Source of the DNA: Escherichia coli
GTDB taxonomy: Bacteria; Pseudomonadota; Gammaproteobacteria; Enterobacterales; Enterobacteriaceae
Assembly (NCBI RefSeq): GCF_013122565.1
Contig: NZ_CP053258.1
Reading direction: 5' to 3' (one strand)
DNA length: 64,000 nucleotides
In this document: in pieces, positions 10,105 through 12,856 of the stretch
How the letters are laid out: each line of letters opens with the position of its first letter
Numbering within the stretch: the first letter of the stretch is position 1
Position numbers and translations under genes: made by a program
The notes under the pieces: model-generated
The model's database searches: none
What the model was told of the DNA's origin: nothing
The model's input: only the letters and a program-made list of their open reading frames with translations

Positions 10105-11448
10105 TTATCCCGCGTAAGGACCAAGATGGAATGTTGCAGCGATAAATTTCAGAACTTCACAAATAGCCGGCCATACGGTTGCCCAGTCAAATATTCCTGT
10201 CCAGCCAACGCCATTTTCAGCAAGCCCGGTTAACGGAATTGCCCACACCGTACCGAAGGTCTGAATAATACCCAGCAAGAACGTACAGATAATTACGGAG
10301 CGGTATCCACCCATGCGGTTTGCTAATACGCCAATCGGGCCGCCTGAGAAAAATAACGGTACAAAGCCTGGCAATACCATAATGGGGCTGTGGATCAGCA
10401 ATAAGATACCCATCGAGAAAATGGTGCCAAAAGTACAGAAGACAAAACCTAACGTTGCGGCATTGGGTGAAAAAGGCAACAGCGCGGCGACATCGACGGC
10501 GGGAATAGCGTTAGGTATAAAGCGATCCTGCCAGCCTTTAAACGAACCGTTAATTTCACCGACCATCATGCGCACGCCCTGCAGCAGAATGACCATGTAC
10601 ATGGAGAACTGTAAGCCCAGGTTGATGATATAGATGTACCAGGGCTTGCCTTTCGCCATTAACTGGACATTATCGATACCCGTTGAGAGCAGGAAGCCAC
10701 CAACAAACAGCGTCATCACAATGGCGATAGCCGTTACGTTGTGGTTAAAAATCGCCAGCCAGCCGGGGAGTTTCAGGTTTTCAGCATCGTGTTTTTCCGG
10801 GTCGCCAAATTTATGCGCGAATTTGGAGAAAAACCACAATCCCAACATCTGGTTATGGGCAATGGTAAAACCGGCATCTTTAGTCACTTTGGCAATGGGT
10901 TTAACAATGAGCGTGGTGGAGAAAGCCCAGAATATCCCCGTTAATACCCCGGCGATAATAATCGATGTAGTCCAGCTAAATCCTAACCAAAAAACGATTA
11001 ACCATAATACTGCCTGAGAATGTGACACCCCGGTATTACCGGTCAGGAATATTCCTTTGGCACCGGTATAGCGACCAAACAGCACCAGTAAGAGGTTGGT
11101 AAAAAACGCCAGAACAAATACATACCCTACATAACCAAAATTATCCCCCAACGCAATTTGCGTTGCGGCTTTCATGGCGTAGGAATCCATTAAATAACCG
11201 TGAACGCCATAGGCTTTACTTACCGCTTCCGCCACCGGTTTAAAGGTTGCGGAAAACTGAAAACCACCAAATAACACCATCATTAATCCCACCATGGCGC
11301 TGACCATGCCGGTGATTATTTTGATGGGTGATTTCTTATCAAGGGCATAACCAATGCCCACCAGCAAACCAATTAATATTGCCGGTTCGGTTAAAAACGT
11401 TTGAATAACATCTATGAATTTGGCAAACATCGTCGGAACGCCCTCCAT
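10105..11448 (-). CDS. PTS system IIC permease (SgaT/UlaA family-like)
   Basis: 447-aa polytopic membrane ORF resembling UlaA-type IIC; exact start uncertain. Confidence 0.75.
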   Translation of the reverse strand: MEGVPTMFAKFIDVIQTFLTEPAILIGLLVGIGYALDKKSPIKIITGMVSAMVGLMMVLFGGFQFSATFKPVAEAVSKAYGVHGYLMDSYAMKAATQIALGDNFGYVGYVFVLAFFTNLLLVLFGRYTGAKGIFLTGNTGVSHSQAVLWLIVFWLGFSWTTSIIIAGVLTGIFWAFSTTLIVKPIAKVTKDAGFTIAHNQMLGLWFFSKFAHKFGDPEKHDAENLKLPGWLAIFNHNVTAIAIVMTLFVGGFLLSTGIDNVQLMAKGKPWYIYIINLGLQFSMYMVILLQGVRMMVGEINGSFKGWQDRFIPNAIPAVDVAALLPFSPNAATLGFVFCTFGTIFSMGILLLIHSPIMVLPGFVPLFFSGGPIGVLANRMGGYRSVIICTFLLGIIQTFGTVWAIPLTGLAENGVGWTGIFDWATVWPAICEVLKFIAATFHLGPYAG

Positions 11449-11634
11449 AAGCGTACATTTCCGTTGTCAATGCATGAACCTTCTGCTGACGTTAATAATG
11501 CTTCAGGAAATTTTTATGTTTCGTTAAGCGATGCCTCTGCATGTATTCGGTAAATGCACTGTAGTAATCAAAACAGTTCAATTAAAGATCTAATTTGATT
11601 ATTTGTGATTTGATTTGCAAAAATAGAGCAATAT

Positions 11635-11680
11635 ATAACCGTGATCGATCGGTTATTATTAATCGATCGATCACGGTTAT
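11635..11680. promoter_or_regulatory. perfect 17-bp inverted repeat (ataaccgtgatcgatcg / cgatcgatcacggttat) with 12-bp AT spacer
   Basis: Seen directly; lies between PTS operon start and rlmC 3' end; could be an operator or rlmC terminator hairpin. Confidence 0.5.
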
Positions 11681-11728
11681 TATTTGGAATGGATGTATGC
11701 CGAAGTGATATTGATTTGAGTGATGTAT

Positions 11729-12856
11729 TTACATTTTTACCAGCAGCGTCAGCACTTCATAGTGCGCTGTGTGCGGGAACATATCAAAAAGCTGTACCCG
11801 TTCGATGCGGTAACCTAGCAGTTCGCGGATATCTTTCGCCATGGTTTGGGCGTTACAGCTGGAGTAGATAATAAAACGCGGTGCCATCGTTGAGAGATAA
11901 TCACACAGCGGTTTACCAATGCCGCGGCGCGGCGGGTTAACCAGCACCAGCTCCGGCACCTCCCCCTGAGCGGTGGCAAACTGAGTGGAGTCCAGCGCCT
12001 GAAATTGCAAACGCGTTAAGCCCAGTTCAGCGGCTGACTGCTTTGCACAGGCAATGGCCTCTGGCGCAATTTCGATCCCGGTTAACTGCATGTCAGGCGT
12101 CGCGCAGTGTAAACCAAAGCCACCCACACCGCAGAACAGATCCCACATATGTTTAACCGGCAGCTGTCGTACCCAGTCGCGCGCGGTGGCGTACAGCTGG
12201 CTGGCGACCGCCGGATTCGTCTGGAAGAAACTTTGCGGACGGATCCACAGCGGTACGTCATTAAAACGCTCTGCCAGCGCCTGATGTTCGGTCAGGTAGA
12301 TCTCCGTCTCCCCTTCCATAATCGCCATATGTACCGGCTGAATATTGACGGTAATAACTTTCAGCTGCGGTAGTTGCTCGTGTAACCACGGCAGCGCCTT
12401 ACGCAGTTGCGCCAGCTTGGTATCAGAACGCAGTACAAAGCGCAGCATCATGCCGCCATCGCTCTGGCTTTCGGTCAGCAGAATGTATTTCAGTTCGCCA
12501 CGCTTACGCGCCACGTTGTAGGGCGTTAACCCCGCTCGGGCGATAAACGGTTTTAGCGCCGCAAAAACGGGCGCAAATGAGGCAGGATAAAGCGGGCAGT
12601 CACAAAGGTCTTCCGGTGTGCCGTCGCGATGCAGCATACCGAGCAGTGGTTTTTCAACGCTACCACTCACCACCATTTTGGCTTTATTACGAAACCCTTG
12701 TTCCGGGCCTGACACCGGCGCGCACCATTCCTCAACCGGAAAGTCGGCGAGCAGATTTTTAAGATCGGCGGTTTTAGCGGAGAGTTGCTCTGGAATCGGC
12801 TGCGTTATCCACTGACAGGAACGACAGCGACCCGCGTCGTAAAGTGCGCACTGCAT
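11729..12856 (-). CDS. rlmC: 23S rRNA (uracil747-C5)-methyltransferase RlmC
   Basis: 375-aa [19 protein letters not shown]... Fe-S Cys cluster plus SAM MTase motifs; matches RlmC. Confidence 0.9.

Follow-up and report, generated by a model that had tools for sequence, protein, structure and literature searches.

A conserved long hairpin between rlmC and a PTS-sulfatase operon in Escherichia and Salmonella, a putative transcript boundary

The 17-bp inverted repeat lying between rlmC and a PTS-sulfatase operon in Escherichia coli was found to be a real hairpin of fixed position, the pairing of which is preserved by selection. The element was analysed in a 64,000-nucleotide stretch of contig NZ_CP053258.1, referred to as the window. 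The hairpin is read as a putative transcript-boundary stem-loop, serving as the terminator of rlmC and as an insulator, possibly in both directions, and on the grounds of the sequence comparisons this reading is given about an even chance of being correct. That the element acts in RNA, and that this action is termination or insulation, we infer indirectly. The hairpin is an ordinary kind of element, an unannotated case of a well-known kind, and as a well-supported structural element it matters little beyond annotation.

Structure and location of the palindrome

The two arms occupy positions 11635-11651 (ATAACCGTGATCGATCG) and 11664-11680 (CGATCGATCACGGTTAT) and are separated by a 12-bp spacer at 11652-11663 (gttattattaat). 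Together they form a 46-bp palindrome with perfect 17-bp arms, exactly as described in the initial annotation. On the minus strand, which is the sense strand of rlmC and of the PTS genes, 11664..11680 is the 5' arm and 11635..11651, the left arm of the plus strand, is the 3' arm. With a repeat finder the stem was extended inwards to 21-nt arms with one G.T pair and a 4-nt loop. The spacer is partly paired in this way in Escherichia, and in Salmonella neither its sequence nor its length (9-12 nt) is conserved.

The unusual length claimed for the palindrome was confirmed. No other perfect inverted repeat in the 64-kb window was as long, the next two having arms of 13 and 12 bp. By analytic calculation, 1.5e-4 repeats with an arm of at least 17 bp and a loop of no more than 40 are expected per window, and the maxima obtained from 30 block shuffles of the window were arms of 9-15. 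The palindrome is clearly non-random. With up to 3 mismatches allowed, the window contained no second copy of the arm sequence. The next in length among the perfect inverted repeats, at 8227-8258, is found where artJ and the sulfatase gene converge; its 13-bp arms enclose a 6-nt loop, and this GC-rich hairpin has a T-run on neither strand. The fold of the palindrome was determined to be about -28 to -30.7 kcal/mol on the rlmC-sense (minus) strand (z = -7.8 versus shuffles) and -42.9 kcal/mol on the plus strand (z = -5.4 versus shuffled controls).

The location between the PTS operon and rlmC given previously was correct. The minus-strand stop codon of rlmC occupies 11729-11731, the hairpin beginning 48 nt downstream of it, whereas the end of the palindrome is 186 nt from the annotated EIIC start at 11448. 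The order of the minus-strand genes is potH, potI, ybjO, rlmC, palindrome, EIIC, EIIB and sulfatase; artJ is on the plus strand and convergent with the minus-strand operon. The upstream same-strand gene, rlmC (11729..12856, minus strand), is 97% identical to K-12 rlmC, and the window is E. coli-like on that account. The PTS-sulfatase operon downstream of the hairpin (8269..11448, minus strand) consists of an EIIC of the ascorbate/galactitol type (10105-11448; NF009550 at 964 bits, PF03611), an EIIB (9763-10083; PF02302) and a sulfatase (8269-9750; PF00884). The RefSeq annotation of E. coli has an identical gene set at the locus and no feature across the rlmC-EIIC intergenic region. Within the module of Escherichia and Salmonella, neither an EIIA nor a regulator gene was present. 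A search of Rfam with the palindrome at permissive E-values resulted in only sub-threshold chance matches to miRNA-type hairpins. Full-text literature searches returned nothing on the rlmC-PTS junction or its transcripts, and no transcript 3'-end data.

The true start of EIIC is probably the second ATG, at 11430, and not the annotated ATG at 11448, which is 18 nt too far upstream. The ATGGAGG within 11430-11448 of the window holds a GGAGG Shine-Dalgarno sequence 9 nt ahead of the second ATG. In Leclercia the start region reads CACGGAGG, and the upstream ATG is thus absent from this genus.

A block of about 70 bp at 11556..11623 (minus strand) is conserved across Escherichia, Salmonella, Silvania, Yokenella and Leclercia, whether the hairpin is present or not, and is probably the real promoter/operator region of the operon. 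The block contains a CRP-like TGTGA-N6-TTGCA at 11604-11619, the likeness being to the CRP consensus only, and a dyad, TAATCAAA-N21-TTTGATTA, at 11565-11601. The palindrome sits 12 nt outside the block and is missing from Silvania, Yokenella and Leclercia, which keep the block. It was therefore rejected as a part of the core control region of the operon, and the hairpin is independent of the promoter block. The 21-mer TTTTGCAAATCAAATCACAAA was also matched exactly in unrelated environmental contigs (L049, L050, L053, L057, L060, L061) with different flanks; in L050 the copy is directly 3' of a GC-rich terminator-like hairpin.

Conservation of the base pairing

Haplotypes of the region were collected from seven E. 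coli genomes, from species-representative genomes and by a metagenome scan anchored on the neighbouring conserved 21-mer. The resulting alignment comprised 13 distinct haplotypes representing E. coli, three other Escherichia lineages and the arizonae, diarizonae and enterica types of S. enterica. Both sides had changed in 8 of the 17 stem pairs, 99.5% of the cells were standard pairs, and 9/17 arm positions were invariant over all haplotypes. The base pairs were kept by compensatory substitution, as in structured elements. None of 500 shuffles reached the observed level of pairing and covariation, and the pairing fell to 15-46% when the partners were slid by 1-3 columns. The neutral sites are near saturation between the window and Salmonella (third-codon identity 0.53); nevertheless, the stem has been kept.

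The arms are nearly identical from Escherichia to S. arizonae and diarizonae. In the enterica type of S. enterica, the arms are TAAATACAACCAATTGA and TCAATTGGTTGTATTTA and are exactly as far from the promoter block as elsewhere; their 17-bp stem is perfect or includes a single U.G. This allele is AT-rich with only 4 G-C pairs, and 8/17 positions per arm have been replaced, always symmetrically. Between the enterica type and arizonae, the flanking genes are 97-98% identical and the operon proteins about 98%.

The variation within Escherichia consists of single transitions, one loop change and a 4-bp slippage deletion of CGAT. Two stem pairs provided complete series on the rlmC-sense strand. Stem pair 5 is C-G in the window, U.G in O157, O145 and others, and U-A in E. 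whittamii. At stem pair 7, the G-C of the window is replaced by G.U in KK05-19 and in nine metagenome contigs, and by A-U in every Salmonella of the arizonae/diarizonae type. Of the single intermediates, read on the rlmC-sense RNA, four independent ones were G.U and one, in S. diarizonae, was A.C. The 4:1 wobble bias leans towards the sense RNA as the selected molecule, without being significant (one-sided p ~0.19). As a natural case, the element shows cleanly how a long hairpin evolves by compensatory changes with G.U intermediates.

The CGAT deletion was found in the (GATC)n core of one arm in E. coli UTME-3 (L006) and KK05-19 (L007), and the deletion allele still folds, with a 16-bp stem in a shifted register. 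The spacer towards rlmC (11686-11737) is hypervariable, with two unalignable E. coli haplotypes, the O157 type and the O145 type. The last rlmC codons are hypervariable as well, RlmC ending in VKM, VKQ, VKI, AKI, CRL or RRSI depending on the lineage. The palindrome has stayed intact while the spacer towards rlmC has diverged past alignment.

Possible functions of the hairpin

Three readings had been offered in the initial annotation: a terminator hairpin for rlmC, an operator for a dimeric regulator, and a scar of an insertion event. The first is the best supported, the second is disfavoured and the third was rejected. According to the terminator and insulator reading, RNA polymerase leaving rlmC would transcribe the 17-21-bp hairpin shortly past the stop codon, and the hairpin with its A/U-rich flanks would terminate the rlmC transcript or, failing that, cap its 3' end and make it more stable. 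Read-through from rlmC would thereby be kept out of the separately controlled promoter of the EIIC-EIIB-sulfatase genes, the conserved promoter-like block beginning 12 nt beyond the hairpin. With the T-rich run on the opposite strand, the stem may also stop antisense transcripts heading into rlmC, and would in that case be a bidirectional terminator.

On the rlmC-sense strand, the stem is followed by an A/U-rich tail (11623..11634, minus strand; AUAUUGCUCUAU) which is common to Escherichia and Salmonella and forms a weak U-tract. On the plus strand, the stem is followed by a T-rich tail (11681..11689; TTATTATTTGG together with the stem end) which occurs in all haplotypes and is, when read on the sense strand, an A-tract upstream of the stem. 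Since the sequence is A-rich before the stem and T-rich after it in all haplotypes, the element appears terminator-like on both strands.

The distribution of the hairpin was connected with the gene upstream of the operon. Escherichia and Salmonella, in which rlmC reads directly into the operon, have the hairpin; Silvania and Leclercia, with a divergent gene upstream, do not. Yokenella also lacks it, and there the same-strand upstream gene, which is histidine-kinase-like by position and sequence only, ends in a hairpin of its own. The presence of the hairpin where rlmC runs into the operon promoter, and its absence with a divergent upstream gene, point to a transcript-boundary hairpin. Some hairpin follows rlmC in all lineages examined, namely GCCGCATGTGCGGC in K-12 and one with a 12-bp stem in Yokenella.

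The main weakness of the terminator reading is the poor U-tract on the rlmC strand. The sense-strand tail has 4 T in its first 8 bases, in an interrupted U-run (UUAUAUAUUGCU), and reads UUAUAUAUU when the four terminal A-U pairs are counted in. In a consensus terminator scan the site was listed on the plus strand and failed on the rlmC-sense strand. The d'Aubenton-Carafa-type score was -11.5 for the sense and +9.5 for the antisense strand; the artJ/sulfatase and the K-12 rlmC-sense hairpins were also scored as non-terminators. The S. enterica allele, with its 4 G-C pairs and very A/U-rich stem base, is poor for canonical intrinsic termination, and the stem of 17-21 bp is longer than those of typical terminators, which counts against a terminator. 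Moreover, compensatory changes in a DNA palindrome can also come from template switching between the arms, with no selection on RNA. Template switching could add to the symmetry, but it leaves unexplained the persistence of the palindrome beside the diverged rlmC-side spacer.

In comparison with known systems, the hairpin is alike to intrinsic terminators, including the bidirectional ones between neighbouring genes, in that a stable stem-loop, here with a perfect 17-bp stem, follows a same-strand stop codon, with A-rich sequence upstream, T-rich sequence downstream and compensatory pairing. One such terminator is found behind rlmC in K-12, where GCCGCACATGCGGC precedes T6 on the artJ-sense strand. 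However, intrinsic terminators usually have a stem of 5-14 bp, whereas the perfect stem of the present hairpin reaches 17-21 bp, its U-run on the rlmC strand is interrupted and its S. enterica allele is very A/U-rich. If termination were confirmed by 3'-end data, the hairpin would be a useful insulator and would show that, in enterobacteria, termination is possible at a long A/U-rich hairpin even if its U-tract is interrupted.

A further candidate, a small RNA with its start on the plus strand immediately ahead of the hairpin, was considered and rejected, the promoter match being only 4/6 + 4/6 and the transcript being the hairpin alone.

Due to the weak sense U-tract, the negative sense score, the A/U-rich S. 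enterica stem and the length of the stem, a role in RNA processing or stability is a serious rival to the terminator reading, though we regard it as rather unlikely to be the right one. The hairpin would then process or stabilise the rlmC 3' UTR or an rlmC-PTS read-through RNA without terminating, either as a block to exonucleases or as a site of cleavage by RNase III through which the two messages are uncoupled. The covariation and the position are the same evidence for both readings, and a perfect stem of 17-21 bp is in the size range of dsRNA substrates. REP elements block 3'-to-5' exonucleases in K-12, and in that strain they are present in the rlmC-artJ interval. In contrast, the conserved A/T-rich runs flanking the stem on both sides fit termination better than a pure stability element. 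Like REP/BIME elements, which stabilise 3' ends of mRNAs and fill the rlmC-artJ interval in K-12, the hairpin is extragenic and 3' of a gene; unlike them, it is single-copy, unrelated in sequence and has no family of copies. It is also similar to the intercistronic hairpins processed by RNase III (of the rpsO-pnp leader and phage T7 R1.1 type), sharing a long near-perfect dsRNA stem between same-strand cistrons. RNase III substrates, however, usually have internal loops and are found inside a known polycistronic RNA, from which the present hairpin differs.

It is improbable that the palindrome is a DNA operator to which a dimeric or tetrameric regulator binds on both arms upstream of the PTS promoter. 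The dyad symmetry adjoins the promoter-like block, the arms are nearly identical from Escherichia to S. arizonae and diarizonae despite the saturated neutral sites, and the invariance of 9/17 arm positions is in accordance with binding. However, the symmetrical replacement of about half of the stem positions in S. enterica, next to an unchanged promoter block, is the opposite of half-site conservation, and positions free of protein contact need not stay complementary. No regulator gene adjoins the operon at the Escherichia and Salmonella loci, and neither the window nor the genome contains the arm motif a second time. The palindrome does not travel together with the promoter block, being absent from Silvania, Leclercia and Yokenella. 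In addition, the arm centres are 29 bp apart and the spacer varies between 9 and 12 bp. A variant with two 10-bp palindromic operators (ATCRATYGAT) was rejected, as the 10-mer is complete in one arm only.

Distribution and age of the module

The intergenic region and the EIIC-EIIB genes were each detected in 566 of 5,426 complete E. coli genomes, once per genome and on the chromosome, so that about 10% of complete E. coli genomes carry the hairpin at the rlmC-PTS boundary. K-12 has neither the module nor the intergenic region. In its rlmC-artJ gap of 198 bp, a short hairpin adjoins the rlmC stop and REP-type sequences come next. Homology between the window and K-12 breaks off on one side within the final two codons of rlmC, about 50 bp short of the palindrome, and on the other at the artJ stop. 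The same palindrome at a module-less artJ-rlmC junction, named in the initial annotation as a ground for refutation, was not encountered in K-12, where the short hairpin is a different one and is accompanied by the REP elements.

The rlmC-artJ interval also holds the module in Escherichia whittamii, in two further Escherichia lineages, in S. enterica subsp. arizonae and diarizonae, and in 8/8 S. enterica loci encoding the very common RlmC variant which ends in LALLRRSI. The EIIC gene is named STM0884 in LT2 (PMC3844500). In Yokenella, the module is in the rlmC-artJ interval too, with four extra genes (L011, 1977-5690) between rlmC and the module. Two of these extra genes resemble a response-regulator and histidine-kinase pair directly upstream of EIIC.

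A search via RlmC homologues for an S. enterica locus without the module resulted in none, every locus returned having the module, and the hairpin was at the rlmC-PTS boundary in every Salmonella locus examined. The closest cluster in that search consisted only of partial proteins at contig ends. Many S. enterica draft assemblies (L066-L070) break in the last five rlmC codons, about 100 nt before the AT-rich palindrome, which results in a large cluster of 'partial' RlmC proteins; this may be an assembly or coverage artefact of the AT-rich hairpin region.

The third-codon identity between the window and S. diarizonae was 0.53 for rlmC and about 0.53-0.54 for EIIC. As EIIC is as diverged as rlmC at third codons, the module is as old as the flanking core gene and not a recent insertion. 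The module is ancestral and the K-12 state is best read as a loss, and this corrects the picture of the PTS-sulfatase genes from an insertion to an ancestral module lost from most E. coli.

These data bear on the possibility that the palindrome has no function, being an insertion scar of the module, the remains of a mobile element, or a quasi-palindrome that is neutral and held symmetric by template switching during replication; a Dam switch based on the GATC cluster is grouped here as well. All of this is of low probability. Template switching is an established mutational route by which quasi-palindromes become more perfect, and the 4-bp CGAT slippage deletions in two E. coli strains and the four GATC sites of the Escherichia allele agree with an element of DNA only. 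Against it, the module has the same synonymous divergence as rlmC and its position is shared by three genera, and the palindrome is intact beside an unalignable rlmC-side spacer. As the S. enterica allele (TCAATTGA) has no GATC at all, a conserved Dam switch is ruled out. The reading as an insertion scar, an att site or a terminal inverted repeat was rejected, since the palindrome is off the breakpoint, about 50 bp inside module DNA, and has no partner near artJ, the artJ end bearing an unrelated 13-bp hairpin, and since the module is as diverged as rlmC. A REP/BIME, ERIC or MITE family was rejected as well, because the palindrome occurs at one place per genome in 566 genomes, with no other copy in the window and no match in the search of phages. 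Only two plasmid records matched (0.73 and 4.9 Mb), and both probably consist of chromosomal sequence.

That the hairpin is more than a passive terminator and serves as a conserved cis-regulatory switch for the PTS-sulfatase operon seems very doubtful. The hairpin would in that case couple the operon to rlmC as a site of regulated read-through or RNase III cleavage, or would modulate the CRP-like promoter via supercoiling as an AT-flanked cruciform.

The module itself was decayed in several genomes. IS1 insertions were detected in the EIIC of E. coli ECNB21-M121 and ET201, an internal stop was present in PT62, and the EIIC reading frame was truncated in a Salmonella metagenome contig (L048).
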